From a bacterium (lineage in GTDB: Bacteria > UBA8248 > JACPRG01 > G963555815), in contig CBDHDG010000007.1 of NCBI GenBank assembly GCA_965261595.1, forward strand, positions 608,001 to 672,000: 64,000 bases of DNA, given 5' to 3'. Below, piece by piece: positions 2,710 to 51,213 of this stretch (its first letter is position 1; each line of letters opens with the position of its first letter). The notes beneath the pieces were generated by a model that was not told the DNA's origin, ran no database searches, and worked only from the letters and a program-made list of their open reading frames with translations. The position numbers and the translations under genes were made by a program.

Positions 2710-3867
2710 ATGGCGCTCGACTATCACCGATTCCCGAAGGCGGAGTACGAAAGCCGGTGGGGGAACGCCCAAAGGCGGATGGCCGAGGCCGGCCTCGACG
2801 CCCTCCTCATCACCGAGAGGGCCAACTACGTTTACTTCTGCGGCGGCAACCCGGACTTCTCCTTCTCCCGGCCGACGACCTTCATCCTTCCCGAGTCGGG
2901 GGCGCCGGTTTGCGTCGTTCAGCAATTCTTCCGGGACCTGACCGCCCGGAGCGCCTACGTGGACGACGTTCGGGTGTACGACACGCTGGGCGGCGCGCCC
3001 ATCGGGATGATCGCCGGGGCGTTGAAGGACCTCGGGGCGGCCGCGGGGAAGGTCGGCTGCGAGTTGGGCTACGAACAGCGTCTCGGCGTCTCGGCGGAGG
3101 ATTTCCAGGCCCTCGGAAAGGCCCTGCCGGGCGCGACGCTGACCGACGGCTCGGGGGTGATCTGGGGCTGCCGGATGGTGAAATCACCCGCCGAGGCCGC
3201 GCGTCTGCGCGAAGCCGGGCGCATCACGGGCGAGGTCTACGAGGCCCTGTTCCCGACCGTCCGCCCCGGCATGACCGAGACCGAGATCGTCGATCGGTTC
3301 CTCCGGATGCACATGAGCCGCGGGGGCGGCTCGCCCTGGTTCCTCATCAACTCCGGTCCCGAAAACTACGACATCCCCTGTGGGGGGCCGGCCGGACGGA
3401 CGCTCCAGGCCGGTGACGTTCTCTGGATGGACGGAGGATGCTGCGTGGGGGATTACTGGTCGGACTACACGCGGATGCTCTTCCTGGGCGAGCCCACGGA
3501 CGATCAGCGCAAGGTCTACGACCTCATCACCGGCGTCACGCGAAAGACGGTCGAGGCCGTGCGGCCCGGCGTCCGGTGCTCCGACCTCCAGGCGCTGAAC
3601 GACCGGCTGTTCGAGGAGGCGGGATACGACTACAACGAGATCAACTTCGCCGGCGGACGGATCGGCCACGGCTTGGGGACGATGATCACCGAACCGCCCC
3701 ATGTCGCGGCCTATGACGACACGGTCCTGGAGCCCGGAATGGCCATCACCATCGAGCCCGGCTGGATGCGGGACGATGGCTGCTTCCACGTCGAGGACAA
3801 TGTCCTCGTCATCGAGGATGGGTGCGAGATCCTGAGCCGGTGCCCGCGTGATTTGTGGGTGGTTTGA
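2710..3867 (+). CDS. M24 family (Xaa-Pro peptidase/creatinase-like) protein
   Basis: Creatinase-type N domain; SDYTR, GHGLG, IEPG, HVED motifs. Confidence 0.88.
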   Translation: MALDYHRFPKAEYESRWGNAQRRMAEAGLDALLITERANYVYFCGGNPDFSFSRPTTFILPESGAPVCVVQQFFRDLTARSAYVDDVRVYDTLGGAPIGMIAGALKDLGAAAGKVGCELGYEQRLGVSAEDFQALGKALPGATLTDGSGVIWGCRMVKSPAEAARLREAGRITGEVYEALFPTVRPGMTETEIVDRFLRMHMSRGGGSPWFLINSGPENYDIPCGGPAGRTLQAGDVLWMDGGCCVGDYWSDYTRMLFLGEPTDDQRKVYDLITGVTRKTVEAVRPGVRCSDLQALNDRLFEEAGYDYNEINFAGGRIGHGLGTMITEPPHVAAYDDTVLEPGMAITIEPGWMRDDGCFHVEDNVLVIEDGCEILSRCPRDLWVV

Positions 3868-3875
3868 GCGAGGCG

Positions 3876-4250
3876 CCAGGGGGGGGACATTTTGAAAACT
3901 GTCCCCCCCCCTGGACCCCCCCTCTCGAAAACGTTCGGCGGCCAAGCTGTAAGCTTGGCCTTACCCGCGCTTGGAGGGACGATTCCACTTCGCGCGTTTG
4001 TTTGGCGCGGCCAAAAAACCTGCCTGCGTCAGACAAATGGAGGTTGGGCTCCAACCTGCGGGCCGGTTAGCCCTTCGCTCGGAAGAGAATTGGCCGCCTT
4101 CCAAAGACAAGCGGGAATGCGGACATTCGGTGGCGGCTTACCGCAATCGCCCACTTAACTTTTTAAGACAAATCGGAGGGCCGTGCGCCAGAGAAGTTAT
4201 CATGAGCAAAACCCCTCCACCCGTAGCTTGGCCGGCACGCAAGTGCCCAG
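3876..4250 (+). repeat. 375-bp structured intergenic element, copy A
   Basis: First ~90 bp and last ~100 bp match the reverse complement of 13901-14275; several hairpins. Confidence 0.85.
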
Positions 4251-4265
4251 GACTTGGAGTGCGTT

Positions 4266-6038
4266 ATGCCTAATTTAGCGGACATTGTGGACGAGGTTAT
4301 CCGGACAGACGTATTGATTGCGGGAACCGAAGGGGCCGGCGCCCGGGCGGCGATCTCGGCCCACGACGCGGGGGCCTCGGTCACCTGCGTGACCAAGGGA
4401 TTCGTCGGCAAAAGCGGCGCCACCCTCACGGCCGACGCCGACATCGACGTAGACAGCCGGACGTGCATCAAGCTCTTCAACCTGCCCGGCCATCCCGACG
4501 ACAGCGTTCAGACCTTCTTTGAGGACATGGTCCACGAGGGGGACTGGATCAACAACCAACGCCTCGTCGAGGTTCACGCCGAAGAGGCCGGACCGCGAAT
4601 CAAGGACCTGGTCGACTGGGGCATCCGCATCGAGCGCCTGACCCACGCGCCGGGCCACCGGTACCCGCGCGGCATCTGGATCGAAGGCCCCGAGTTCGCC
4701 CGGGTCCTCACCCAGGAAATCAAGAAACGGCCCGGCATCCAGCTCGTCGAGACCTTCATGCTCACCGACATCCTAACGAGCGGCGGCCGGTGCGTCGGGG
4801 CCATCGGGCTAGATTACCGCCGCGGCAAGATCATCGCTTTCGAGGCTTCGGCGGTGATCCTGTGCACGGGCGGGGCCATGCGGATGTACCGGTACACCAC
4901 CGCGCCGGAAGAGCTGACGGGGGACGGCCTGGCCGCCGCCTACCGGGCGGGGGCGGAGCTTCAGGACATGGAGTTCCCCATGTTCCTGCCTTACATCCTC
5001 ATCAAGCCCGACGCCGTCAACAGCATCGATTTCCCCTACCTGCTGGCGCACTTCCTCGACGCCAAAGCCCTGAACCGCGCGGGCCAGGAGTACATGATCA
5101 AGTGGGACCGGCTGCGCATGACGAAGAGCACGCGGGACGTCAACGCCATCGCCCAAATGATGGAGGTCCTCGAAGGACGCGGAAGCCCCAACGACGGGAC
5201 CTATCTCTCGCTCAAGCATATTCCCCGAAACATCCTGGAGCGAGGCTCGCAGTGGCTGCCGAAGATGATCGCGAAGTGGCGCTACGGGGCCTTCAAGATG
5301 AAGGAGTTCCTGCCCGACCTTTCCCAGGACGCCATCGAGTGCGCCCCGGCTTGCCACTTCTGGAACGGGGGGATCAAGATCACCGAGGACTGCGAGACCA
5401 ACCTCCCCGGTCTCTACGCGGCGGGAGAAGGGACCGCCGGCACGCACGGGAGCAACCGGGTGTCGGGCAACGCCCTGACGATGACCCAGGTCCTCGGGCC
5501 CAGGGCCGGTGAAGCGACGGCCAAATTCGTGAAAGAGCACGGCCGCGCGGAAGTGGACGCCGAACAGGCCGCGGTGTTCGCCGAGAAAATCCGGGCGCCG
5601 CTGAACCGCAAGTCCGGCGCGAGCCCCATCGAGATCCGCAAGGAGACCCGCCGGCTCTCTCACCTCTACCTGAACGCCGTGCGGGACGGGGACAATCTCA
5701 AGAGCACCCTCGAGAGGGTCGAGGAGCTGCAGAAACAGGAAAAAACCGTCCGCACCAAAAACCCGGACCTGCGACAATACAACATGGAGTGGATCGAGGC
5801 CCTCCAGACGGAGAACCTCCTGACCGTCATGGAGATGGTCGGCAAGGCGAGCCTGATGCGCGAGGAGAGCCGGGGCGCCATGTTCCGGCGGGACTTCAAT
5901 GACACCGACGGCGTGAACTGGTTGAAGAACATCATCGTCTATCAGGAAGGCGAGCAGATGAATTTCCGGACGGAGCCCGTCGTCGTCACAACGATGGAGC
6001 TGCCGCGCAAGGTGTACAAATACTGGGACGCGGAGTGA
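4266..6038 (+). CDS. Succinate dehydrogenase/fumarate reductase-family flavoprotein, non-canonical
   Basis: GTEGAG FAD motif, TGDG, STRD, HFWNGG, HGSNRVSGNAL, REESRG C-terminal domain. Confidence 0.85.
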   Translation: MPNLADIVDEVIRTDVLIAGTEGAGARAAISAHDAGASVTCVTKGFVGKSGATLTADADIDVDSRTCIKLFNLPGHPDDSVQTFFEDMVHEGDWINNQRLVEVHAEEAGPRIKDLVDWGIRIERLTHAPGHRYPRGIWIEGPEFARVLTQEIKKRPGIQLVETFMLTDILTSGGRCVGAIGLDYRRGKIIAFEASAVILCTGGAMRMYRYTTAPEELTGDGLAAAYRAGAELQDMEFPMFLPYILIKPDAVNSIDFPYLLAHFLDAKALNRAGQEYMIKWDRLRMTKSTRDVNAIAQMMEVLEGRGSPNDGTYLSLKHIPRNILERGSQWLPKMIAKWRYGAFKMKEFLPDLSQDAIECAPACHFWNGGIKITEDCETNLPGLYAAGEGTAGTHGSNRVSGNALTMTQVLGPRAGEATAKFVKEHGRAEVDAEQAAVFAEKIRAPLNRKSGASPIEIRKETRRLSHLYLNAVRDGDNLKSTLERVEELQKQEKTVRTKNPDLRQYNMEWIEALQTENLLTVMEMVGKASLMREESRGAMFRRDFNDTDGVNWLKNIIVYQEGEQMNFRTEPVVVTTMELPRKVYKYWDAE

Positions 6039-6045
6039 GGAGACC

Positions 6046-6414
6046 ATGGCGAAGACTTACACGGTGAAACTCGAGCGGTATAATCCGGATGCCGATAAGG
6101 AACCCTACTACGACGACTTCCAGGTGCCCATCGAGGAAGGCTGGAGCCTCCTCAACGTCCTGGCCTACATCTACGAGGAGCTGGATCCCTCGGTTTGTTA
6201 TTACGGCTCCTGCCGGGTCGGCAAGTGCGTCGCCTGCCACGTCAAGGTCAACGGAAAAACCCGCCTGGCCTGCACCGAAATCGCGGGACGGGAGGACATG
6301 ACCATCGAGCCCCTGCCCAGCGTCCGGGACACCTTCATCCGGGACGTGGTGCTCGACTGGTCCCAGGTCCGCCCCGCCGGCAGAACCGGGATGAGCGACG
6401 ACGAGGTGGATTAG
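6046..6414 (+). CDS. SdhB/FrdB-like protein with the [2Fe-2S] domain only
   Basis: SCRVGKCVAC...RLAC, IEPLP, IRD; ends at 122 aa. Confidence 0.85.
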   Translation: MAKTYTVKLERYNPDADKEPYYDDFQVPIEEGWSLLNVLAYIYEELDPSVCYYGSCRVGKCVACHVKVNGKTRLACTEIAGREDMTIEPLPSVRDTFIRDVVLDWSQVRPAGRTGMSDDEVD

Positions 6415-6449
6415 GCCTGCCCGGTTTCACGGAAACGGGAGCACAAAGG

Positions 6450-7448
6450 ATGGCGCGGACCTCCGCACCAATAAACGAAATCGCCGTCTGGCCGGCGTTG
6501 GCGCAATTCTGGCATCCGGTGGCCTACGCCCATGAGGTGACCGACAAGCCGGTCCCTCTTACGCTCCTCGGAGAGGAGATCATTGTCTGCCGGCTGGGGA
6601 AAGAAGTCCAAGCCTTCGCCGACCTGTGCGTCCACCGGGGAACCCCCCTCTCCTTGGGGTGGATCGAGGGGGAGGAGATCATCTGCGCCTACCACGGCTG
6701 GTCCTACAACCGCGAGGGCGAATGCACCCGAATTCCCTCGATTCCCCCGGAGCACCCCATCCCCAAAAGGGCCTGCCTGACCCGCTATCCGGCCCGCGAG
6801 CGATACGGCATCGTTTGGGTCTGCCTGTCCGATGAGCCCCGCGCGCCCGTCCCCGAATACCCGGCCTATGAAGACCCGAACTACCACATCGTTATCCGCG
6901 ACAGGGGTCTCTGGAAGTGCGGTGCGGCGCGGGGAATCGAGAACTTCATCGATCTCGGACATTTTTCCTGGGTTCATGAAGACATCCTGGGAACCCGGGA
7001 CCTCCCGCTGACGCCCGAGATGCACATTGAACGGCACGGCGAGGAGCTTCGCTTCCACTGCGATTGCCTGCCGGACCGGATTCATCCGGTGGCCCACCGG
7101 CGGAACTACAGGCTGGCCCGCCCCTTTTCGATTTACAACTGGAAGGAGCAGGAGGGGGCCGATCGTCAGGAGGTGCTCGTCTTTCTCTGCACGCCGCACA
7201 CCGAGAAGGAGTGCACCTGGTTCTTCCTGATCGCCCGGAACTATGACCCCGACGCGGACAAGGGAGAGGGCGAGGGGCAGGAGAACCTCTACAAGCTCAT
7301 CCTCGAACAGGACCAGGCCATCGTCGAGCGTCAGCGGCCCGAGGCCCTTCCGCTGGACCTGCGGGAGGAGCTCCACGTGAAGGGGCCGGACGCCATCGCC
7401 CTCGAATACAGGAGGTTTCTCGCCGAGCTCGGCGTGGATGTGGCTTAG
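6450..7448 (+). CDS. Rieske non-heme iron oxygenase (VanA/demethylase-like alpha subunit)
   Basis: CVHRG...CAYHGW Rieske motif; ENFIDLGHFSWVH mononuclear Fe motif; RBS before ATG 6450. Confidence 0.9.
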   Translation: MARTSAPINEIAVWPALAQFWHPVAYAHEVTDKPVPLTLLGEEIIVCRLGKEVQAFADLCVHRGTPLSLGWIEGEEIICAYHGWSYNREGECTRIPSIPPEHPIPKRACLTRYPARERYGIVWVCLSDEPRAPVPEYPAYEDPNYHIVIRDRGLWKCGAARGIENFIDLGHFSWVHEDILGTRDLPLTPEMHIERHGEELRFHCDCLPDRIHPVAHRRNYRLARPFSIYNWKEQEGADRQEVLVFLCTPHTEKECTWFFLIARNYDPDADKGEGEGQENLYKLILEQDQAIVERQRPEALPLDLREELHVKGPDAIALEYRRFLAELGVDVA

Positions 7449-7661
7449 TCTTCGGAAATGGCCGGCCCGCGTCCTCTTGTTCGGACCGGCCTGCTTCATT
7501 CAGTATGGGTGAAATCCAACAGGGCCGACCGCGCGGCCTTGCGGTTGCCCCGGCTTCCCGAAAGCGGACGGGCCTGATTCTCTCCGGCTTCCATCGCGCG
7601 TCGGGAGACGCCGCTTGATCATGAGCGGCGCTCCGCACCTTCAGCAGCCTGTGAGAATCCG

Positions 7662-8536
7662 ATGAGTCTCCTGTTCATCGCCGAAATCCTCGCCTTGGTC
7701 ACGGCTGTCCTCTTCGCCACGGGGGATTTTGTCGGGCGGCTCGCCATCCGGCACGCGCCGCCGTACATGGGGGGCTCATGTCGGCGGCCGTGGGGTGCGT
7801 CGTGTTCGGCGCCGCATGGCTGGCGATCCCTTCGACCGTCCCGCTCAACCTGCCGGGTGTGGTGTGGTTCTTTTTTGCGGGACTGATTCACCCCGCGTTC
7901 GGATTCATTATCCTGTTGAAGGCGTTCGAGAAGGCCGGGGTCGGCCGCTCGGCCGCAATCCTGGGGACCGGCCCGTTTTTCAGTGTGGCCATCGCCATCC
8001 TCTTCCTCGGCGAGCAGCCGACCTGGTTTGTGCTCGGCGGCACGCTGTTGATTGTCCTGGGGGTTGTCTGCGTCAGTCTGGAGGAAGGAACGGAAGGCCC
8101 CGTCAAGTGGAAGAGCTTGGGCTACCCGTTCTTAACGGCGTTCTTGTTCGGCCTCGCGCCCGTACTCAGGAAGTCGGGTTTGAATCACATCCCCTCCCCG
8201 ATGGTCGGCATGGCCATTTCCTCCTTGTCCGGAACGGTTTGTCTGCTGGCCTGCGCGGGGTTTTTCCCGGCCGGGCGGCGGTTCAACGGCAACCGAAGAG
8301 GGATCGGGCTCTATACCATCTCCGGAGCCCTCTTCGCCCTGGGTGTTTATACGTATTTCTCGGCCCTCGAAAAGGGGGATGTTTCGATCGTTGTGCCTCT
8401 CCTTTTCACGCATACGCTGATGCTGCTCGTCCTGGTTCACTTTTTCCTTCGGCAATTTGAACGGCTCGCGCCGCGGCTCGCGGGCGGCGCGGTCTTGATC
8501 GTCTGCGGAGCGGTGGTCATCACAACGCTCGGGTAG
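7662..8536 (+). pseudogene. EamA/DMT transporter, frameshifted near 7770
   Basis: N-terminus in the 7662 frame, remainder in the 7778 frame; shift at a G run; paralogous to 8613-9494. Confidence 0.8.
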
Positions 8537-8612
8537 GGCGCGCACATCCGCCTCCCCCCTCGCCCGGGCGCCCGGAAGGCGGAGAGGCCGGTTTTCGGAG
8601 ACTGGACATTCC

Positions 8613-9494
8613 ATGATGAGCTTCTTGGATCTCGCGCAAACCCTGGCGGTTATCGTGGCGATCATATTCGCCGTCGGAGACATCCTCGGCCGGCTTGCCG
8701 TCCGTCATTCCACGCCCTACACGGGAGCACTGTTGGGCACGCTCGCCGGACTGGTTTTATTTGCCCTGATCGCCCTGGGATCCGGGTCCTGGGTGGCCGT
8801 CAACCTCGCGGGGATCTCCTGGTTCGTTGTGGCGGGGGTGTTCTATCCCGGTTTCGGCTACATCGCGATTTTCAAGGCCTTCGAGCGTGTGGGCGTCGCG
8901 CGGACGGCGGCGGTCCTGGGCATGTCGCCGATGATCAGCGTCGGCATCGCCATCCTGTTCCTGGGGGAGCGGCCGGGATTCTTCGTGCTTTGCGGGACGG
9001 TCCTGATTGTTCTGGGGGTCGTGAGCATCAGCCTGGAAAAGGTTGACGGGGAGGGGAGGATGTCCTTCAGGAAACTGCTCTGGCCCATCCTGACGGCCGT
9101 CTGCTTCGGCGTCACCCCCATCCTCAGGAAAACCGGTCTCCACTATCTTCCTTCCCCGGTGATGGGTATGTTGTTCTCCTCGATCGGCGGCATGTTTGTC
9201 CTCCTGGCCTGCATCGGGCTTATTCCCCGCGCGCAACGATTCAGCCGCCATCGCCTGGGCGGGGTTCAATTTATCCTCACGGGCCTCATTTACGCCCTGG
9301 CGGTCTATCTCTACTTCGTGGCCCTGAGCAAAGGGCCGGTTTCGCTCGTGGCGCCGCTCGTTTTGACTTATCCCCTCTTCGTGCTAATCATGATGGCCTT
9401 GGCGTTCAGAAAACTGGAGCGGATCACGCCGCGTCTGATCGTGGGGGCGCTTTTGACCGTTGCCGGGGCGGGGGTGATTACCGGCCTTGGCTAG
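8613..9494 (+). CDS. EamA/DMT transporter
   Basis: About 10 TM segments, LFLGERP motif, two EamA halves. Confidence 0.88.
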   Translation: MMSFLDLAQTLAVIVAIIFAVGDILGRLAVRHSTPYTGALLGTLAGLVLFALIALGSGSWVAVNLAGISWFVVAGVFYPGFGYIAIFKAFERVGVARTAAVLGMSPMISVGIAILFLGERPGFFVLCGTVLIVLGVVSISLEKVDGEGRMSFRKLLWPILTAVCFGVTPILRKTGLHYLPSPVMGMLFSSIGGMFVLLACIGLIPRAQRFSRHRLGGVQFILTGLIYALAVYLYFVALSKGPVSLVAPLVLTYPLFVLIMMALAFRKLERITPRLIVGALLTVAGAGVITGLG

Positions 9495-9770
9495 CGGAGT
9501 CAATGGTTCCGCGGGACCACGCCCGAATCAAGACTGCCTACAAGGGGAAATCTCCGCCGGGGTGGTATAAGATGACGGAGCCATCCAGCGTGATTCTGGA
9601 CACAAAACCTCTTTGAAGCGGCATCACCCATGCATGACGCCATCCTCAGATCGGTATTGATTTTCTCTTTTCGATGAGCGATGGAAACGAACATCAAAGA
9701 GGGAAATCCGATATCTCCCAAGTGAATTCCGGGGGTTTTCCATACCCTCCGCAAGGGGAAAAGGAGTGTC

Positions 9771-10454
9771 GTGACTTTGGCCACTTTGCAACCTTTGCAG
9801 AAAAAGCTGCTTTCAGAAAACGTGGTGGGGGCCATCCGGACCGCCATCTTGAACCGGGATTTGGAGATGGGCCAACGGCTGGTGGAGACCGAGCTGGCCG
9901 AGCAGTTGCGCGTCAGCCGCGGCCCCATCCGGGAGGCCCTTCGCCTTCTGGCGGCCGAGGGCCTGGTGCTCATCAACGCCCATCGGGGGACCTTCGTCCT
10001 CAAGCCCACGGAAGTGGACGTGGAAGAGATCTACAGCCTGCGCGAAACCCTGGAGGTCCTGGCGATTCAGCGGGTCGTGCGGCTGGCCTCCGATGAGGAG
10101 GTCGACTCGCTCGGCGCCATCGGAGAACGATTCAATGTCGTTGCGCCGGGAAAAAATGTCAGCCAGCTTGTCGAGCTGGACATGGAGTTCCACGGCCGGC
10201 TGTTCCATCTCGCCCGGCATCGGCGGGTTCTGAATAACTGGTCCGCTCTCCAGTCGCAGGTCCGTCTGTGCATCGCCGCCAGTATGGATCAGCATGAGAA
10301 ACGTCCGATCTCGTTCCTCGGACAGGACCATGCGGTGATCGTTCAGGCCGTCCGGGACCGCGACGCCGAGACCGCCGGCCGCCTGCTGGGCCAGCACATC
10401 CAAAAGGGGGCCGAATTCGTCCGGAGGGCGATGCAATCCGTCTCGAAGTCGTAG
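9771..10454 (+). CDS. GntR/FCD transcriptional regulator
   Basis: ETELAEQLRVSRGPIREAL; FCD domain with FH and DH. Confidence 0.9.
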   Translation: MTLATLQPLQKKLLSENVVGAIRTAILNRDLEMGQRLVETELAEQLRVSRGPIREALRLLAAEGLVLINAHRGTFVLKPTEVDVEEIYSLRETLEVLAIQRVVRLASDEEVDSLGAIGERFNVVAPGKNVSQLVELDMEFHGRLFHLARHRRVLNNWSALQSQVRLCIAASMDQHEKRPISFLGQDHAVIVQAVRDRDAETAGRLLGQHIQKGAEFVRRAMQSVSKS

Positions 10455-10557
10455 GGACCCCCGGGTCTTCTCCGCGCGGGCATTCCGATGCCGCCGGTCG
10501 ATTGGGCCGGAAGAAAGAGATTCGAGGTTCAAAGCAAGACAAAGGGAGTGAGTTGCC

Positions 10558-11451
10558 ATGCTGAGCGCGGAAACACTTCGGGGCGTTTATTCAGCCATCG
10601 TGACGTCCTTCCAAGGGGATGAGACGCTCGACGAGGGGGCGCTCCGCAAGCAGACAGAGTACGTCATCGAGAACGGCGTCCACGCCATCATGTCCACGGG
10701 CGGGACGGGCGAGTTCCCCCACATGACCCGGGAAGAGAGAAAAGCGGCCAATGCCGTCATCACGGACCAGGCGGCCGGCCGGATCCCGATCATCGCCGGA
10801 ACGGCGGGATGCAGCACGCGGGAAGCCGTCTTTCTGTCCCAGGACGCCCAGGATGCGGGCGCGGCGGCCGTCATCCTCACCCCGACCTACTACTTCAAGA
10901 TTCCCGAGGAGGGGCTGAAGCGGCACTTCTTCGACGTGGCCGAAGCCCTGGACATTCCGGTCGTGATTTACAACAATCCGCTTTACACGGGCAATCCCAT
11001 GTCGCCGTCTCTCATGGCGGAAATCATGGAGCACCGGAACATCATCGGCGGAAAGCTGAGTCAGGACGACATGGGGCAGCTTGTCGAGACCCTCCGGATC
11101 ACCCGCGGCCGGGTGTCCGTGAACACCGGGATCGACAGCCAGTTCTACCCGGCCCTCTGCGTAGGCTCGCGGGGGATATTCTCCACGGCCTCCTGTGTCA
11201 TCCCCCGGCAGATGGCGGACATCTACGACCACTTCCTCGCGGGCCGTCACGAAGAAGCCCGCGAGCTCCACATGAAGGTCCAGGTCCTCAACCGCTTCCT
11301 CGAGTACGACCCCGGATACGTCGCGCCCGCCAAGGAAGCGCTGGCCATGCTGGGCATCCCCTGCGGCGCCGCCCGCAAACCGTTGCCGCCCCTCACGGAC
11401 GAGCAGCGCGCGGGCGTGAAAGCCGCCCTGCAAGCGCTGGGCATGCTCTGA
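10558..11451 (+). CDS. DapA/NAL-family class I aldolase/lyase
   Basis: GGTGE, IYNNP, Schiff-base K in GGKLS, RKPL; substrate unknown. Confidence 0.85.
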   Translation: MLSAETLRGVYSAIVTSFQGDETLDEGALRKQTEYVIENGVHAIMSTGGTGEFPHMTREERKAANAVITDQAAGRIPIIAGTAGCSTREAVFLSQDAQDAGAAAVILTPTYYFKIPEEGLKRHFFDVAEALDIPVVIYNNPLYTGNPMSPSLMAEIMEHRNIIGGKLSQDDMGQLVETLRITRGRVSVNTGIDSQFYPALCVGSRGIFSTASCVIPRQMADIYDHFLAGRHEEARELHMKVQVLNRFLEYDPGYVAPAKEALAMLGIPCGAARKPLPPLTDEQRAGVKAALQALGML

Positions 11452-11505
11452 GACCCGAATCGACTCTCCCCGGTCCGAGAAGAGACCGGCGGGGGAACGC
11501 GCCCG

Positions 11506-12729
11506 GTGAGTCCTAAGCTTCCGCCGATCGATCCGGATTACACCGTCGGACTCCTGACCGATTTGGTCCGGATCAACAGCGTCAACCCGATGACCTCCCA
11601 GGGGGCCGCGGCTTCGGATGGCCCGGGACCGCCCGGAGAATCCCGGATCGCGGCCCGGTTGGCCGAGGCCATGATGGACCTCGGGGCCGAAGTCGAGATC
11701 ACGCCCGCCGATGAGGCGGGAGAGGAGGCCGACCGGCGGCCGAACGTCATGGGCCGTTGGCCGGGAGAGGGGCGGGGGGCGCGGCCCGGTCCGGAGATCG
11801 TTCTCTGCTCTCACCTGGACACCGTCGGGGTGGCGGGCATGGAGGCCCCCTTCGATCCCGCCGTCCGGGACGGTCGGGTCTTCGGCCGGGGGTCCCTCGA
11901 CGCCAAGGGCCAGTTGGTGATGTTCCTGGCCGCCCTCCACGCCGCGCGGAAGATGGAGGAGCCGCTTCCAGCGAACGTGACGATCGCCGCCGTCAGCGAC
12001 GAGGAAGACCAGAGCGTCGGGGCGCGAAGCATTTTAAAAACGCTTCAGGGGGATTTTTGCATCATCGGGGAGCCGACCGGTCTGGACCTGGTCCTGGCGC
12101 ATAAAGGCTTCTGCTGGATCGAGATCGAGACGTTCGGCAGGGCGGTCCACGGCAGCGTTCCCGAACAGGGAATAGACGCCATCGCCAAGATGGCCGAGGT
12201 CATCCGGGCCGTCGAGGGATTGAAACCGTCTTTGAGGGAGCGCGTCCATCCGCTGCTCGATCACCCCATGATCCACATGGGCGTCATCGAGGGGGGCTCG
12301 GGCGTCAGCACGGTCCCCGACCATTGCCGCCTGACCCTGGAGGTGAGGATGTGTTTGCGGGAGGAGGCCGAGGGAATTTTCGCGGAAATTCGTGATATCC
12401 TGCGTCGCCTCTCGGGGGTCGACCCGGACCTGAAGGCCGAGGCCCGGCTGGGCGTCGTCCGCCAACCCATGGAAATCGATCCGGATCATCCCCTGGTGTC
12501 GGGACTCGCCGCCGCCGTGGAGGCCGCGCTCGGCAAGCCGCCCGCCAGAAACGTCATGGGGGCGTGGACGGACGCCGGGTATTTCGCGGAGAAGATCCCC
12601 ACCGTGGTCTTCGGACCGGGCGACCTGGGCCTCGCCCACTCCAAGGAAGAATTCGTCCCCATCGAAGAGATCGTCCGGGGTGCCGCCGCCGTTCTGCGGT
12701 TATTGACTTCTCCTCCCACAATGGAATGA
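11506..12729 (+). CDS. M20 ArgE/DapE-family deacylase
   Basis: SHLDTV, GRGSLDAKG, DEE, GEPT, AHSKEE. Confidence 0.88.
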   Translation: MSPKLPPIDPDYTVGLLTDLVRINSVNPMTSQGAAASDGPGPPGESRIAARLAEAMMDLGAEVEITPADEAGEEADRRPNVMGRWPGEGRGARPGPEIVLCSHLDTVGVAGMEAPFDPAVRDGRVFGRGSLDAKGQLVMFLAALHAARKMEEPLPANVTIAAVSDEEDQSVGARSILKTLQGDFCIIGEPTGLDLVLAHKGFCWIEIETFGRAVHGSVPEQGIDAIAKMAEVIRAVEGLKPSLRERVHPLLDHPMIHMGVIEGGSGVSTVPDHCRLTLEVRMCLREEAEGIFAEIRDILRRLSGVDPDLKAEARLGVVRQPMEIDPDHPLVSGLAAAVEAALGKPPARNVMGAWTDAGYFAEKIPTVVFGPGDLGLAHSKEEFVPIEEIVRGAAAVLRLLTSPPTME

Positions 12730-12736
12730 ACCGGAA

Positions 12737-13870
12737 ATGAGCGAAACGAAAAGTCCCGTCGGCGAAATCCTGCGCAGAGGCATGGAGTCCCTTTCCCCGC
12801 TGGCGCCGATTGCCGACGCGGCGGAGGTGAAGCGAAGGTCCGGCCGGGAGGTGGCCCGCATCGGGACCAACGAGAACCCGATGGCCCCATCCCCGGCGGC
12901 CGTCGCGGCGGCCGGGCGGGCGCTCCAGGAGCCCAACCGCTATCCCGACCCGATGAGCCGAGAGCTTCGGGAGGCCATCGGAGCTCATCACGGCCTGACG
13001 GCCGGGCACGTCTTCGTGGGCAACGGGGGCGATGAGGTCATTTCGGTCTTTTCCCGCGCCCTCCTCAACGAAGAGGACGAGGTCCTCATCCCCTGGCCGG
13101 CCTTCTCGACGTATGTGGTCACCGCCCAGGTGGCGGGGGCGCAAGTGATCCTCAGTCCGCTGAAGGACCACGCCATCGACGTGGACGACGTCCTGTCCCG
13201 AATCACGGACCGGACGAAGCTCCTTTATCTCTGCAATCCCAACAACCCGACCGCGACGATGCTGGCCCCGGAGGACTTCGAGCGGATCGCCGCGGCCGTT
13301 CCCGCGCGCGCCGTCGTCATTTCCGATGAGGCCTACCGGGATTTTGTGGAGGACGAGGTCCCCTATGCCGACACCGTGGGCCGGCTCCGGAGGGGGGACG
13401 CCCCGCATCTGCTGATCGTCAAGACCTTCTCCAAGGTCTACGCGCTGGCGGGGTTGCGCGTGGGCTACCTCCTGGGCGATCCCGAGGTGATCGCCCACCT
13501 GTTCCGCGCCAAGGAGTTCTTCAACGTCAACCGGGTCGCCCAGGCGGCGGCCCAAGCGGCGCTGGAGGATGAGGAACACTATCAAAAGAGCCGCGCGTTC
13601 ATCATCGGGGAGCGCAGATACATCGAAGCCGAGATCAGAGAGCGGGGTCTTCGATACGTCCCGTCGCAGACCAATTTCATTCTGATCGAGATCGGCGGAC
13701 AGGATGAGGCCGACGCGGTGTTCGAAAGGCTCCTGGACCGGGGGATCCTGGCCCGCGCCGGAAAGGGATTCGGGGCGCCCGGAACGGTCCGTATCTCAAT
13801 CGGAACGCGCGAGGAGAACGAGCGGGTCCTGGCGGTGTTGATTGAAGGCCACACATCACGAGGGCCTTGA
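12737..13870 (+). CDS. hisC: Histidinol-phosphate aminotransferase-like PLP enzyme
   Basis: NENP, NRYPD, CNPNNPT, DEAY, KTFSKVYALAGLRVGY. Confidence 0.8.
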   Translation: MSETKSPVGEILRRGMESLSPLAPIADAAEVKRRSGREVARIGTNENPMAPSPAAVAAAGRALQEPNRYPDPMSRELREAIGAHHGLTAGHVFVGNGGDEVISVFSRALLNEEDEVLIPWPAFSTYVVTAQVAGAQVILSPLKDHAIDVDDVLSRITDRTKLLYLCNPNNPTATMLAPEDFERIAAAVPARAVVISDEAYRDFVEDEVPYADTVGRLRRGDAPHLLIVKTFSKVYALAGLRVGYLLGDPEVIAHLFRAKEFFNVNRVAQAAAQAALEDEEHYQKSRAFIIGERRYIEAEIRERGLRYVPSQTNFILIEIGGQDEADAVFERLLDRGILARAGKGFGAPGTVRISIGTREENERVLAVLIEGHTSRGP

Positions 13871-13900
13871 TGCGGGGGGGGCGCTTGCGTGCCGACCAAA

Positions 13901-14275
13901 CTGGGCGCTTGCGCGCCGGCCAAGCTGCGGATGGAGGGGTTGTGCTTATTACAATCTCCTCTGGCGCACGGTTGTCCGGTTCGTCTCAAAAGGTAAGCGC
14001 ACGAGTGCGGAAATCCAGACACCGAGTGGCCGCCCCAACGTCATTAGGCGATAGTGTGCTTTGCACACTATCGCAAAAACTGACGCTTTGGCCGGATGCT
14101 GCGGCTGCCCTAGGCAGACGGGCATCCGGCCAAAGACACAAGCCATCAAGGGCCACAGCCGACCGGTACAGCCAATCCAACACCCGCCCCGGTAAGGCTA
14201 AAGCCAGAGGCTTGGCCGCCGAAAGTTTTTCGGGGGGGTCCAGGGGGGGCGGTTTTTCAAAAAAGCCCCCCCTGG
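13901..14275 (-). repeat. 375-bp structured intergenic element, copy B (inverted)
   Basis: Reverse-complement homology to 3876-4250 at both ends; terminal hairpin tandemly duplicated at ~13879-13926. Confidence 0.85.
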
Positions 14276-14294
14276 GAGGTGGACGGGAGAAGGT

Positions 14295-15689
14295 ATGAAC
14301 GCGACACCGCCTGATCCGCTCAAAGGGTATCGGGGACGCGCCCTGGAGGCGTTGAAGTCCTTCGGCGTGCGAGTGTGGAGCGAGGTCGAAGCCGAGACCA
14401 AGCGCGGGAAGTTTCACGGGATCATCCTGCCCCGCGCCGAACAGGCCGACGATCGGCACATCGTCCTGAAGCTCCCCACCGGATACAACGTCGGCGTCTC
14501 GGCCGAAAGCCTCCTGGACCTGCGGGAGGTCGGTTACCGGGAAGCCCACTACCAGATCCCCGAGAAAGAGTTCCCGACCGACCCGTCGAAGCCCGACGTG
14601 ACGCTCCTCGGGACGGGCGGGACGATCGCCAGCCGGCTGGACTACCGGACCGGGGCCGTCATCCCGGCCTTCTCGCCGGGGGAGCTCTACGGAGCCGTTC
14701 CGGAGCTGGCCGACATCTGCAACCTCAAGACCATCAAGCTGTACGGCGTATTCAGCGAGAACATCAGGCCCGAGCACTGGATCGGGACGGCGCGCGCCAT
14801 CGAGCGGGAGATCACACACGGGGTGGACGGGATCGTCGTCGGACACGGCACCGACACGATGCACTACACGGCGGCGGCCCTGACCTTCATGGTCCAGGAC
14901 CCGCCGGTCCCCATCGTCCTGGTCGGCTCGCAGAGATCGAGCGACCGGCCGAGCTCGGACGCGGCCCTCAACCTCATTCACGCCACCCACGCCGCCGCCC
15001 GGGGAAAGATCGCGGAGGTCATGGTCTGTATGTTCGGCCCCACCAGCGACGCCTACGCCCTGCTCCACCGGGGGGTCCGGGTCCGGAAGATGCACAGCAG
15101 CTACCGCTCGACCTTCCGGACACTCGGCGACACGCCCCTGGCCAAAATCGAGCGTGACGTCCTGACGTCCATCAAGACCGACTGGCGGCCGAGGAGGGAG
15201 GACCGGAAGGTCCGCGTCGAGACCCGGTTCGAGGAGCGGGTCGCCATCCTCTACTACTACCCCAACATGCATCCCGACGTGCTCGAGGCCTTCATCGACA
15301 ATGGATACAAGGGCATCGTCATCGCCGGCACGGGGTTGGGACACGTCAATAAGCCCCTTTACCCCGCCTTGGAGAAGGCCCGGGACGCGGGAATCCCGGT
15401 GTTCATGACCGTCCAGACCCTTTGGGGATACACACAGATGTACGTCTACGACTCGGGGCGCGACATCCTGGAGCGGGGGGTGATCCCGCTCGGCAACATG
15501 CTCCCCGAAGTGGCCTACGTGAAGCTCGGCTGGGCGCTCGGCCAAACGGACGACCCGGAGGAAGTGAAACGAATCATGCTCACCCCGGTTTCGGACGAGA
15601 TCACCGACCGGGAGCCCCCCAACGGCTACGTCATCCTCCAGGGCGGCCTCCCCGAGGTGGACGAGTTCCTCGGCCGGTATTGGAAATAG
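14295..15689 (+). CDS. gatD: Glu-tRNA(Gln) amidotransferase subunit D
   Basis: GatD N-terminal domain (LKLPTGYNVGV); TGGTIASRLDYRTGAV, HGTDT, SQRSSDRPSSDA, KMHSSYR, PEVAYVKLGWALG. Confidence 0.93.
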   Translation: MNATPPDPLKGYRGRALEALKSFGVRVWSEVEAETKRGKFHGIILPRAEQADDRHIVLKLPTGYNVGVSAESLLDLREVGYREAHYQIPEKEFPTDPSKPDVTLLGTGGTIASRLDYRTGAVIPAFSPGELYGAVPELADICNLKTIKLYGVFSENIRPEHWIGTARAIEREITHGVDGIVVGHGTDTMHYTAAALTFMVQDPPVPIVLVGSQRSSDRPSSDAALNLIHATHAAARGKIAEVMVCMFGPTSDAYALLHRGVRVRKMHSSYRSTFRTLGDTPLAKIERDVLTSIKTDWRPRREDRKVRVETRFEERVAILYYYPNMHPDVLEAFIDNGYKGIVIAGTGLGHVNKPLYPALEKARDAGIPVFMTVQTLWGYTQMYVYDSGRDILERGVIPLGNMLPEVAYVKLGWALGQTDDPEEVKRIMLTPVSDEITDREPPNGYVILQGGLPEVDEFLGRYWK

Positions 15690-27658: not shown

Positions 27659-27764
27659 GGGCAATCCGGCGGGAGGCGCTTTTTGAAAGGCCCCCCCTAA
27701 AAACCAACGGGTTTGTTAGGATAGTGGGAAGGTCGTGTCTTTGAATGGTCCTTTCCGGTGAGGG

Positions 27765-29867: not shown

Positions 29868-30034
29868 ATCACCGGAGGCCAAGCACCTTGGAAATAGCCT
29901 TCAATGACAAGAGATTCGGAAATGAGTATAACGATTTCAATAGGTTAAGAAGACGTCACGGCGACCGAAGAGCTAGATTAATCCGTGATTATGCCCTTGA
30001 CACATAGTGCCACAAGGGGTAGTATCTGGGAATT

Positions 30035-30646
30035 ATGCGAAAGCATGTTCTTGTTGTGCTTGGACTTATCGCTGTTTTTAGTGCAGGAAAGGCTGCTGAA
30101 ATGACGTGGCCTGATATAGCAGCACATATCTGGTGGAAGATTGCGTTCGCTACTAGCGCCATCATGGTTATTGTCAGCTACCCCAAAATAGTTTTTGCAC
30201 CGGTCACCATTCCTTTGAATTGGATTAGAAAAAGGTTTCACTCAATTCCAGAAGCAGACCAACAAATTAAGCCAGTAAAGCGCATATATACAGCACGAAC
30301 AGTGGATGAAATGTTTGCGGCAATCAAAAACATGACGGATATTGAAGTCGAACGATTCGCCCAGCCACACATAGGAAAGTGGATTAGGGTTCAAAGCGTT
30401 ATCCGAAATATGCAAAGCGACGATAACTTTTTTTATGTCATGCTTGGAAAGTCGTTAGATCCAATGCCGTATCTCCGTTTTACAAGGGAGAAATGGGGCT
30501 CGTCTCTTGAGACTATGACTCAGGGAGATCGTCTCGCTACCGAAGGGAAAATTACGGGACTAGATCACCTAACGCTGGATATGGATTCTTGTGCGATTGT
30601 AGGGCTGAGAGAGAAAGACGATGTATTACGTCCCATTAAGCGGTAA
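30035..30646 (+). CDS. Passenger membrane protein, possible OB-fold C-terminal domain
   Basis: Low-GC 203-aa ORF inside the TIRs; two N-terminal hydrophobic segments. Confidence 0.65.
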   Translation: MRKHVLVVLGLIAVFSAGKAAEMTWPDIAAHIWWKIAFATSAIMVIVSYPKIVFAPVTIPLNWIRKRFHSIPEADQQIKPVKRIYTARTVDEMFAAIKNMTDIEVERFAQPHIGKWIRVQSVIRNMQSDDNFFYVMLGKSLDPMPYLRFTREKWGSSLETMTQGDRLATEGKITGLDHLTLDMDSCAIVGLREKDDVLRPIKR

Positions 30647-31523
30647 GCCTCTTGTATTCCAGCGGATCGGTGTTCATGATTCGCTTGAGGGTGTCCATGA
30701 ATATGTGGGGGTTGTCGCGGTTGTTGTGTCGCCATTCGAGTTCTTCAAGGTAACGGTCCATATGCTTGACGCTCATCTTGTGGAAGGTTCCGATAATGGA
30801 CCGCTTGAACAGGGACCACACGCCCTCGATGCTGTTGGTGTGAACATCTCCAATCACCCATTCTTCCTCGGAATGGTTAACCGTTTCATGGCGTGTGTCA
30901 TGATCCTCGACACCGATATAGGACTTCAACTCGTCCGTATAGATTGCCTCGGCTTCGTCCTTGACTGTGCGCTGGATGAAGTCATGAAGGGTCTTGCGCC
31001 GAATGTTCGGAATGCGCTGGACGCGGAGCTTCCCACCGCGCTGGATGGCTCCAGCGATCCACTGCTTGTTCCCCCTGTATCCATGCCCCTTGCCCTTCTT
31101 CTTGCCGCCGATCAGGGTTTCATCCACCTCGACAACGCCCACCAGCGTAGGACCTTCAAGGGGGTCATTTCCCATTGCCTCACGAATGCGGTGGCAAAGG
31201 TGCCAAGCCGTACGATATGTGGTTCCGAGAGTTTCCTTCAACTGGTTTGCCGATACCCCTTTCTTCGATACGCACATGAGGTAGATCCCCATGAACCACT
31301 TGCGGAAGGGAAGGCGGGAATCGTGCATGATGGTTCCACTCGTCACGGAAAACTGATATCCGCAACCGTGGCATTGGTATTGATTGCGCTTCGGAATTTC
31401 TCCGATGCTCATATCCCCGCACCGAGTACAGGCAACGCCATTGGGCCAGCGAATTTCCTCAATGGCATTGCGGCATTCGTCATCGTTTTTGTACTTGTCC
31501 AGCATGGAAAGGAGGCTTTGCAT
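30636..31523 (-). CDS. IS1595-family transposase
   Basis: CxxC...CxxC Zn ribbon, VEVDET, YTDE, HTNSIEGVWS, YLEE. Confidence 0.93.
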   Translation of the reverse strand: MQSLLSMLDKYKNDDECRNAIEEIRWPNGVACTRCGDMSIGEIPKRNQYQCHGCGYQFSVTSGTIMHDSRLPFRKWFMGIYLMCVSKKGVSANQLKETLGTTYRTAWHLCHRIREAMGNDPLEGPTLVGVVEVDETLIGGKKKGKGHGYRGNKQWIAGAIQRGGKLRVQRIPNIRRKTLHDFIQRTVKDEAEAIYTDELKSYIGVEDHDTRHETVNHSEEEWVIGDVHTNSIEGVWSLFKRSIIGTFHKMSVKHMDRYLEELEWRHNNRDNPHIFMDTLKRIMNTDPLEYKRLTA

Positions 31524-31977
31524 GGGTCAAGAGGCTCCTAAGAAAAAGGAACGGAAACTTCCCAAAGATGCGCTAAAGCATGACGACATGCACCTGATGA
31601 CGTGCATTTTCGGGGAAGAAGTGATGGCCGAAGTAGACCGTATCGTCAAAGAAAAATCTGATGATTCAGGGGATGAGTAGCTCATACCCTATAATATACA
31701 TCTTGTGGCACTATGTGTCAAGGGCATAATCACGGATTAATCAGGCTCCGTCTCGATGACCTAGCCGCCGCAAACAACTTGACTGTCATGCGAACCCTTC
31801 CCTAAGCTCGCTGTCACGAATTGAAAGGCAAATTGAAGGGGGATTTGTCTGTAGATCTTGACCACCCCTATAGGCTCCTCTTCCGACCGGCAGATAACCC
31901 TCCACCGCTGAAGCCGGATGGCGGACTGGACTGGGAGAAGGTCAACCGGATCGAGGTTCTCAGAGTGAAAGACACCC

Positions 31978-50900: not shown

Positions 50901-51213
50901 ATTGGTCAAAATGGTTTTCTGTTATTCTCCCAGTTGCTTTGCTGCTTCAACCGCGTCAAAGTCTCTCTGTGCCCTTTCGCGTTCCGCCTTGATATCCTCA
51001 TAGGGCATTTTTGTTGCGATGCCAGGGTTACCCATAACGACAACCCCTATAACGAAGGTTTCTTTAATCAATTCACGAGCGAGGTGTCTAAGGTCATTGT
51101 CGATTAGCTTTCTACCCGTAAAAAAGGCAACAGCCAGAAAAGAGTAAAACACACATGCGCCAACACCGAAGGCTGTAATTCTTTTCCAGTTTGTGCTACC
51201 TTTAGCGTTGTCG

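Follow-up and report, generated by a model that had tools for sequence, protein, structure and literature searches.

Two 375-bp stretches stand in inverted orientation within a 64,000-nt window, the whole stretch of bacterial DNA analysed here: copy A at 3876-4250 on the forward strand and copy B at 13901-14275 on the reverse strand. Their ends resemble each other and their cores do not, which raises the question of what kind of element they represent. A first-pass annotation took them for a single 375-bp structured unit, a mobile repeat or an RNA family with a fixed scaffold and a variable insert. Its description of the pair is accurate. By BLAST, the 3' ends are homologous (79.1% over 134 nt, E 3e-23), as are the 5' ends (79.4% over 68 nt, E 5e-8), and the cores give no alignment. 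Both copies are also rich in hairpins, with fold z-scores of -3.9 (A) and -6.7 (B) and an equally good fold in 0 of 100 shuffles. The idea of non-autonomous repeats with covarying hairpins survives, but that of a single 375-bp unit does not. A and B are very probably nested composites of two dispersed, non-coding, non-autonomous, lineage-specific repeat families, X and Y. What was read as a scaffold is, at the 5' end, the left end of X and, at the 3' end, the separate module Y, which sits inside the right-end hairpin of X; the supposed insert is the X interior, which differs among subfamilies and is exchanged between copies. Nor are there just two copies, since both component families are dispersed, dozens of times each, through the genome of this uncultured bacterium. 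The two lengths are indeed equal, but by coincidence: ten loci with an X left end plus Y span 248-371 bp, and the true extents of A and B are wider, about 3871-4255 and about 13874-14280.

X is a MITE/REPIN-like element of 145-470 bp that has no coding capacity. Each of its ~55-nt terminal inverted repeats has an 8-nt terminus on the outside, a conserved stretch on the inside, and a G-run/C-run hairpin between the two; two or three more hairpins follow one another in the space between the repeats. A profile search (E<1e-4) finds 83 X ends in the genome; 16 close inverted pairs of ends lie less than 520 bp apart, and the sequence of copy A matches 65 places in its own genome. Y is an asymmetric module of 70-150 nt with a GCAA-loop hairpin at its end, present in 48 copies in the same kind of search (E<1e-4). 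Of the 44 near-full Y copies, 11 have an X left end on their own strand and under 350 nt upstream. Y is found also alone and in tandem, with three in a row at C7:1038483-1038695, and the modules of both families can stand singly or in tandem and point either way relative to the genes.

Copy A, read on the forward strand, begins with an X left end at 3871-3935 (end model 3880-3935, E 4.9e-10), in which the conserved 8-nt terminus (3871-3878) leads into the G-run/C-run hairpin (3879-3911) and then into the inner portion of the inverted repeat. It is followed by hairpin H2 (3939-3961), a perfect 9-bp stem with a 3-nt loop. The segment CGGCCAAGCT lies at 3939-3948, as first described, and AGCTTGGCCG, the distant partner proposed for it, at 4225-4234. 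The X interior (3962-4118) is delimited by BLAST and by the orthologous region of the sister species G001. Up to 4027 this interior is common to one X subfamily, and positions 12-158 of A match C1:136881, C7:733560, C7:587948, C5:621960, and C7:606210 at 72-80% (BLAST). From about 4028 to 4118 it is without significant match elsewhere in the genome and is kept at the orthologous site of G001. The long form of Y, aligned to five other copies, occupies 4119-4250 and contains the short-form core at 4167-4248 (Y model E 1e-20), including the GCAA-loop hairpin at 4234-4247, which is present as annotated and differs in copy B by the swap of one pair. After Y, a short C-run and an 8-nt terminus (4245-4255) form the outer half of the X right end; this tail scores 5/8 against the outward-reading X terminus automatically, when one base off register, and 8/8 after a shift by manual reading. 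The copy is sense to a FAD_binding_2 flavoprotein gene, whose ATG (4266) was correctly placed 15 nt downstream.

Copy B lies on the reverse strand, antisense to both adjoining genes, as had been noted. Its X left end spans 14221-14280 (end model 14221-14272, E 4.1e-13), with the 8-nt terminus at 14273-14280 and the G-run at 14266-14272, and is located 22 nt upstream of the ATG of a GatD/asparaginase-like gene (Pfam). H2 (14196-14218, from the sequence and the alignment to the G001 ortholog) is imperfect in this copy. Hairpin H3 (14086-14135) has an outer stem of 14 bp, 14135-14122 with 14099-14086, plus an inner stem; it is formed in the minimum-energy fold and recurs in other X copies. The perfect 12-bp stem of H4 (14048-14074), which pairs 14074-14063 with 14059-14048, is a hypervariable palindrome of X, and at the orthologous site in G001 it is rewritten and again perfect. 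Both of these stems had been predicted. The long form of Y (13901-14033) aligns to that of A by BLAST at 79% over 134 nt, and its short-form core lies at 13903-13984 (Y model E 9.5e-20). Beyond it, at 13874-13900, the sequence contains a partial duplicate of the Y terminal hairpin and then a run of seven C, the outer arm of the X right-end hairpin, so that B ends 3 nt from the TGA of an aminotransferase gene (gene end 13870). A further remnant of the 5' hairpin, suspected near 27670-27700, is real: it is a solo X end hairpin at 27671-27698 on the forward strand (E 1.6e-6 in a 181-nt search) in which the end model covers the hairpin part only, model positions 2-31 of 52. Before it stand TAA and an A-rich stretch.

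Comparison of two orthologous sites in G000 and G001 places Y in the centre of the X right-end hairpin. In G000 this hairpin is plain at one site and carries an 18-nt insert at the other; G001 has at both sites the outer hairpin half, then Y, and the same flank, and the inner G-run before Y is plainly readable at the first. At the site with two legible junctions, Y is bounded on one side by the inner G-run and on the other by the outer half of the X end hairpin. Inside this hairpin Y always takes the same orientation. Considered as a possible IS200/IS605-derived (PATE-like) element, Y has no inverted ends; it carries one subterminal hairpin at the 3' side and perhaps another at the 5' side, and a search for an IS200/IS605 element with Y-like ends found none. 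Modules are also exchanged at orthologous sites. At the B site, G001 has a replaced H4 stem, a replaced Y middle, one swapped pair in the Y hairpin, and an additional 75-nt module, between flanks that are 90-93% identical. The A site holds neither X nor Y in G004 and G006, is rearranged in G001, and in G003 carries an X with a B-like core plus Y.

The internal hairpins of X are maintained with great precision. Among 33 H4 hairpins there are 27 distinct stems, in which 570 of 575 pairs are Watson-Crick; an arm pairs with its own partner at 99.5%, compared with 72% for the partner arm of another copy. H2 is similar (34 hairpins, 12 distinct stems, 294/297 pairs Watson-Crick). The internal stems of X thus covary strongly. 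Only 3 of the 575 H4 pairs are G-T, as expected of a DNA palindrome rather than an RNA stem. Y gives a covariation score of 0.160 versus 0.148 for shuffles, 25 of 500 of which reach it, and has one truly covarying pair; several of its variable pairs are G-U on this strand (U-G 16, G-U 13, U-G 5).

Elements are found chiefly beside gene ends. Of 92 loci, 30 lie between convergent genes, 56 between co-directional genes, and 6 between divergent ones, compared with 714, 2890, and 718 such gaps in the background. A gene 3' end is faced by 61 of the 83 X ends (median distance 13 nt) and a gene start by the other 22. The stop of an ORF of at least 120 codons lies within 20 nt of 46/81 ends but of only 122/3000 random positions. 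Among the 48 Y 3' ends, 30 face the 3' end of a gene and just 5 come within 60 nt of a gene start. This placement, together with the snug fit in eight element-filled convergent gaps, where 8-20 nt remain at either side of the element (convergent gaps lacking one measure 205 nt in the median), suggests that X, with or without Y, has possibly been co-opted by the host as a 3'-end cassette, a tentative reading that is compatible with a selfish origin. Located only a few bases past stop codons, the end hairpins would make transcripts more stable or terminate them, or would delay ribosomes at termination, and selection would keep the stems perfect. Old copies are still 99% paired, and age combined with intact perfect stems may point to a host function rather than selfish spread. 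The outward flank past each end hairpin is pyrimidine-rich because the inward flank is purine-rich. There is a precedent in E. coli: according to PMC12306157, an earlier study located 260 of 496 REPs at most 15 nt from a stop codon, and these REPs are reported there to stall ribosomes. Against such a cassette, a consensus scan of A and B detected no canonical terminator at their end hairpins; its few matches to intrinsic terminators fall elsewhere and are close in number to those in shuffles, and the stem and the T-rich stretch after it are not directly adjacent. The ends that face gene starts also argue against it, as does the over-representation of TAA at abutting stops (21/60 versus 686/3646 predicted genes), an excess that may be a mere reflection of the A-rich terminus of the element. 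The low fold energies, the covarying stems, the G-U pairs of Y, and the position of A, sense to a gene 15 nt downstream, would also suit genes or cis-regulatory parts of a structured non-coding RNA whose scaffold is fixed and whose insert varies. Two RNA-library contigs lie here, one over 3978-4165 and one over 4027-4329, and the second continues into the flavoprotein gene; such contigs, which do not show ends or strand, are in themselves no evidence of transcription. A dedicated structured RNA is nevertheless unlikely, and this account of A and B is a distinctly poor one. In the 64-kb window no Rfam family reaches its gathering score; relaxing the limit to E 10 yields only miRNA-type hairpins at least 31 bits under their cut-offs, the best an animal miRNA model at 26.6 bits with a cut-off of 58. 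No promoter-like site was found. Moreover, X is symmetric, its two ends being inverted, the modules are found singly or in tandem and in both orientations with few Y 3' ends near gene starts, G-T pairs are scarce in H4, and the covariation of Y is barely above that of shuffles.

It had also been proposed that the inverted pair might form a switch for inversion of the 9.6-kb gene cluster that separates A from B. The two are mutually inverted, with ~79% identity over 68 and 134 nt, and one contig (run X1) joins 3909 to 14244. However, the joint, whose short side measures just 25 nt, falls within a palindromic end hairpin common to 83 copies and is missing from run X5, and repeats are known to yield such joints. 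In both DNA runs, contigs at the inner sides of A and B follow the reference arrangement. In G004 and G006, the flavoprotein and aminotransferase genes share a strand at a distance of 8.7-9.6 kb, and the peptidase gene adjoining A keeps its place as well. Homologous recombination finds a poor substrate in 79% identity over about 130 nt. With order and strand the same in two relatives, a switch is exceedingly improbable. In its ~55-nt terminal inverted repeats, its size, its lack of coding sequence, and its many copies, X resembles a classical MITE, one that descends from a DDE insertion sequence and is mobilised by the transposase of that element acting on the inverted ends. This origin is improbable: no target duplication was detected at fixed offsets in 15 pairs (at most 4/15 two-base matches) or at free offsets in 26 elements, whose longest flank repeats match the shuffled null, and the genome contains no larger element with the same ends. 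The duplications may have been lost from old copies. The ends of DDE transposons are seldom palindromic hairpins themselves, and those of X are.

The families X and Y would have spread in the past as hairpin-forming single strands, with no target duplication. The agent may have been an enzyme acting in trans, for which an HUH Y1 transposase (RAYT or IS200 type) is the most plausible, though tentative, candidate; spread by recombination and gene conversion alone is conceivable but doubtful, and a lost DDE transposase is unlikely. No autonomous element was detected among long-range end pairs in the genome or beside Y1 and IS110-family transposase loci; the four end pairs 1.4-2.9 kb apart enclose ordinary genes and no transposase. 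Across 12 Y1 transposase loci in G000, G003, and G006, an X end occurs within 1.5 kb of none and Y near one; G001 carries X and Y, and no Y1 transposase was found in its incomplete assembly. The genome's three RAYT-like genes have different, unrelated inverted repeats on their flanks, and these repeats, too, recur in the genome. The elements now appear to be old, inherited vertically, and for the most part no longer mobile. Even the closest paralog pairs are only 68-88% identical (25 of 26 loci gave a pair), and a search for near-identical copies found none. Recombination between copies has probably shuffled the modules, which would account for conserved ends with a different core.

The range of the families is narrow. 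X or Y matches occur in 4 of 41 related genomes, all of family f1, and a pattern search of 185,579 species genomes gave 18 hits, of which 11, from four MAG assemblies, carry a full end. One presence/absence site was found among 20 G001 loci. Its junction repeat of 4-5 nt coincides with the element's own C-run, so deletion in G000 fits as well as insertion in G001; no donor copy of more than 80% identity was found for it.

Several known systems resemble X and Y. REPINs are much shorter than X, which has several separate internal hairpins. Like REPs and REPINs with their RAYTs, X forms high-copy extragenic palindromes and inverted doublets with compensated changes. Two conserved inverted ends around a spacer constrained mainly to hairpin formation are shared with REPINs (PMC3116915); further likenesses to REP/REPIN-RAYT systems (PMC2817692, PMC8266576) are old age, vertical inheritance, a position near gene 3' ends, and, in X, no target duplication seen. 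REP palindromes carry a GTAG or CGTC tag at one end (PMC3733652), whereas the X end alignment contains neither. The majority consensus before the Y hairpin is CCGCAGC, with GTAG there in copy A only, and, unlike in REP/REPIN-RAYT systems, no Y1 transposase gene in G000, G003, or G006 is flanked by X or Y. BIMEs and BOX elements join a few modules in varying order and number and form tandem arrays of one module. X and Y share with these mosaic repeats of E. coli (BIMEs) and pneumococcus (BOX; PMC2817692, PMC3049150) their hairpin-rich, intergenic character. In contrast to these, their sequences are unrelated, X has long inverted ends, and Y is nested at a defined point in the X hairpin rather than merely adjoining it. 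Correia elements belong to the bacterial MITEs, on which general reviews exist (PMC2229807, PMC3184786). They have terminal inverted repeats, a length below 500 bp, many copies near genes, and transcripts that can fold into long hairpins; X differs in that it lacks a parent insertion sequence and any target duplication, whether TA or another, and in that its ends are themselves hairpins. ISPpu9 (IS110/IS1111) inserts into REP palindromes, and its non-coding parts are reported to be present in extra genome copies, the solo Ssr9 (PMC12288879, PMC11187229). Y is similar in its position inside a repeated palindrome and in its fixed orientation, but it encodes nothing, and none of the nine IS110-family loci in the genome has X or Y within 1.5 kb. 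A literature search found no published description of the family. X and Y are an ordinary kind of repeat DNA, and the family itself is lineage-specific and new.

Copies A (3876-4250, plus strand) and B (13901-14275, minus strand), described in the first-pass annotation as two inverted copies of one 375-bp structured element, are present as stated: in BLAST, their 3' ends are 79.1% alike over 134 nt (E 3e-23), their 5' ends are 79.4% alike over 68 nt, and their cores do not align. The stems named there were all found, including the GCAA-loop hairpin with its one-pair swap, as were the two complementary 10-mers at 3939-3948 and 4225-4234, and both stretches fold better than their shuffles (z -3.9 and -6.7). 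The notion of a two-copy element, on the other hand, was refuted. A alone matches 65 places in its own genome (G000), and A and B jointly give 187 BLAST alignments there. Because the 5' parts and the 3' parts match different sets of places, they were modelled separately, giving two dispersed non-coding families: X, a MITE/REPIN-like repeat with inverted ends, and Y, a smaller module. The 5' hairpin remnant noted near 27670-27700 is a solo X end hairpin.

Copy A is flanked by genes for an M24 peptidase and a FAD-binding flavoprotein, and copy B by genes for an aminotransferase and a GatD/asparaginase-like protein. The last of these genes (14295-15689) encodes GatD_N plus asparaginase domains, an architecture better known from archaea. 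The Rfam search yielded no match at the gathering score or at E values up to 10, promoter and terminator scans at the elements gave nothing above shuffle level, and copy B had no match in plasmid and phage collections. Contigs from the RNA libraries, which carry no strand, end, or level information, leave 3742-3977 uncovered in the RNA runs, which proves nothing. A dedicated RNA gene at either copy is unlikely. Some 90 intergenic loci of this genome, along with many others in three relatives, can be labelled repeats rather than candidate RNA genes. The proposed inversion of the cluster between A and B found no support, and a contig joint in the reads linking 3909 to 14244 was judged a repeat artefact. 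Short-read assemblies are interrupted at the X end hairpins: in both DNA runs, contigs end at 3881-3908 and 14246-14268, and contigs of the sister species (G001) and of a further relative (G003) terminate in these repeats.

Terminal inverted repeats of about 55 nt bound X. Each comprises a terminus of 8 nt (of 81 ends, 59 have A at position -8 and 67 have C at position -3), together with a G-run/C-run hairpin and an inner part that is conserved. Searched with an end profile, the genome gives 89 matches at E up to 0.01 (83 at E<1e-4), and in 16 inverted pairs the ends are separated by less than 520 bp. Element length ranges from 145 to 470 bp, and the interiors hold the hairpins H2, H3, and H4 in combinations specific to the subfamily. 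Some ends also carry inserts, one of 20 nt in 12 ends and another, located in the hairpin, in 3. A third small module (~60-75 nt, with a hairpin built on GGCGGCC...GGCCGCC) is seen inside some X elements (G000:C6:1118200-1118270; in G001, the B site, L125:2680-2760, and the A site, L055), and it can be present or absent at the same site between the sister species.

Y is 70-150 nt long and ends in the GCAA-loop hairpin. Its profile matches the genome 50 times (48 at E<1e-4). Copies occur singly, in tandem (three at C7:1038483-1038695), or downstream of a same-strand X left end, the last class comprising 11 of 44 near-full copies, A and B among them. Identical Y doublets also lie near both ends of contig C1 (C1:14015-14116 and C1:221811-221912), with identical flanks and inverted orientation; a large inverted duplication would explain this, as would an assembly artefact.

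The relationship between Y and X emerges from a comparison of 20 G001 X loci with the same sites in G000, two of which differ in a telling manner. At C7:767103-767343, the X right-end hairpin is plain in G000, and in G001 the G-run is followed by about 150 nt that include Y, then by the outer half-hairpin and the same flank. At C6:419623-420089, the G000 hairpin has an 18-nt insert, and in G001 the outer half-hairpin is followed directly by Y in matching orientation. Copies A and B conform to this pattern, in which Y sits within the X right-end hairpin. In the tail of B, a partial copy of the hairpin and a run of seven C come after Y, and a stop codon lies 3 nt away; in that of A, the corresponding sequence is a short C-run and an 8-nt stretch fitting the outward terminus. 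Among Y tails generally, 12 of 47 have a C-run of at least 5 C after them, and only 3 of 47 fit the X terminus at 7 or more of 8 positions, against a background of 2.8%. Such a genome-wide tally is no proof of nesting on its own, and the case for nesting rests on the two orthologous comparisons together with the anatomy of A and B.

The stems of X are variable in sequence and almost perfect in pairing. Among the 33 H4 hairpins, 27 different stems (12-19 bp) occur, with 575 pairs in all, of which 570 are Watson-Crick, 3 are G-T, and 2 are mismatches; an H4 5' arm pairs at 99.5% with its own partner versus 72% with the partner from another copy. For H2 (34 hairpins, 12 stems), 294 of 297 pairs are Watson-Crick. 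The near-absence of G-T pairs fits better with DNA palindromes or templated correction than with selection on RNA only. In Y, the RNAalifold consensus is limited to the terminal hairpin and a long-range helix of 4 bp, and beyond these no consistent internal helix was found; a candidate helix, 40-43/63-66, was dropped, as only 64% of cells pair. Only one pair truly covaries (G-C 21, A-U 12, A-C 4, G-U 1), and the covariation score is barely above that of shuffles (0.160 vs 0.148), being reached by 25 of 500.

Among 26 longer loci, no pair exceeds 88% identity over 100 nt or more, and most best pairs lie at 70-82%. G001 carries elements at sites A, B, and C7:800114 too, with flanks that are 90-95% identical. 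The low paralog identity and the shared sites indicate that most copies are older than the G000/G001 split. At orthologous sites, X/Y interiors change faster than the flanks: at the B site in G001, another perfect palindrome forms the H4 stem, Y differs in its middle and has a compensated swap in its hairpin, and there is an extra 75-nt module. Neither X nor Y is present at the A site of G004 or G006; the site is rearranged in G001, and in G003 it contains both Y and an X whose core resembles that of B. Conserved ends around different cores would thus result from module exchange. Of the 41 related genomes searched, 4 have X/Y matches (G000, G001, G003, and G006, all of one family); G002, G004, and G005 gave none. 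A scan of 185,579 species genomes for an 18-base motif returned 18 stretches, 11 with a full end, from four MAG assemblies.

Gene positions around the elements come from a rough gene caller made for this analysis. The 92 X/Y loci occupy 30 convergent, 56 co-directional, and 6 divergent gaps, against background numbers of 714, 2890, and 718. Of 83 X ends, 61 point towards the 3' end of a gene, with a median distance of 13 nt. In a check using open frames only, with no gene calls, an ORF of at least 120 codons stops within 20 nt of the outer G-run at 46 of 81 ends versus 122 of 3000 random positions. Convergent gaps filled by an element (n=8) leave 8-20 nt on each side; element-free ones have a median length of 205 nt. 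At one filled convergent gap, the neighbours' stops are at the same place in element-free relatives, and so the element truncated neither gene. TAA makes up a larger share of the abutting stops (21 of 60) than of the stops of predicted genes (686 of 3646; chi-square on counts ~14, 2 df). According to one account, E. coli REPs likewise lie close to stop codons (PMC12306157). The elements may possibly have acquired a role at gene 3' ends, which would be compatible with a selfish origin.

Searches for the means of movement gave no target duplications and no autonomous partner for X; four long-range end pairs enclose ordinary genes. In the empty-site search, the orthologous sites in G004 and G006 were too diverged to give boundaries. 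Only one site is occupied in G001 but empty in G000; it has a 4-5-nt junction repeat that coincides with the C-run of the element itself, and no donor of more than 80% identity was found, so that an insertion in G001 is no more likely than a deletion in G000. Of five matches to Y1_Tnp (HUH Y1 transposases) in the genome, three are flanked by their own inverted repeats and none is tied to X, and the link to RAYT was rejected. No X end lies near any of 12 Y1 transposase loci in three genomes, nor near any of 9 IS110-family (DEDD) loci; an IS110-family link for Y was sought, and rejected when none was found. Y1 genes turned up in G000, G003, and G006 but in none of G001, G002, G004, and G005, a loose co-occurrence with X/Y among kin that G001 breaks.

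Other repeats share these genomes. The three Y1 genes with flanking inverted repeats are RAYT-like and lie outside the window (G000:C6:336158-336906, C7:1197002-1197605, and C7:693212-693787); their repeats are also dispersed (8, 57, and 10 exact genome copies), and they appear to be separate REP-RAYT systems of the classical type, with no relation to X or Y. An IS110-family (DEDD) transposase gene is present in four copies, 98-99.9% identical, inside a repeat of more than 4 kb (G000:C3:35103-36209, C6:1022898-1024004, C6:1335881-1336987, and C6:1547693-1548799). Within the window, a ~1.4-kb repeat in three 100% identical copies, two direct and one inverted (34067-35470, 51213-52617, and 53332-54736), is probably an insertion sequence, and 1.8 kb between 52-nt inverted repeats that are 92% complementary (29970-31748) is likely another. 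Beside a G001 X locus (L143:218-795) lies an unrelated repeat of ~250-280 bp, with more than 25 G000 copies at ~77-80% identity. About 1.5 kb adjoining an X element at G000:C4:438953-440475 is absent from the orthologous place in G001 (L148, G001:C58).

A bolder reading, which we consider rather improbable as a whole, would make X more than junk, a 3'-end cassette with copy-corrected stems and Y a parasite of that repeat. X would be ancient, vertically inherited, and two-sided, having replaced whole intergenic spacers and leaving a few bases after each stop codon. Copy correction, by one arm templating the other or by exchange of cassettes between copies, would keep the palindromes perfect and run faster than the neighbouring genes diverge. 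Y, in this view, would be an independent single-strand element able to recognise the loop of the X end hairpin and insert itself there, with one of the genome's HUH Y1 enzymes moving it.

X and Y offer clean material on the long-term upkeep of perfect pairing in variable stems, on a small module occupying the centre of another repeat's hairpin, and on repeats packed against stop codons; none of these points by itself opens a long-standing question. A limited literature search found no published description of either family. The variable yet perfect stems and the module nested in another repeat's hairpin are worth a note. X departs from REPINs in that neither a cognate RAYT nor the GTAG or CGTC tag was found, and from classical MITEs in that neither a target duplication nor a parent element was found. 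The families are new and lineage-specific, and of a known repeat kind: REP/REPIN sequences and the mosaic repeats BIME and BOX are the closest, with classical MITEs more distant.
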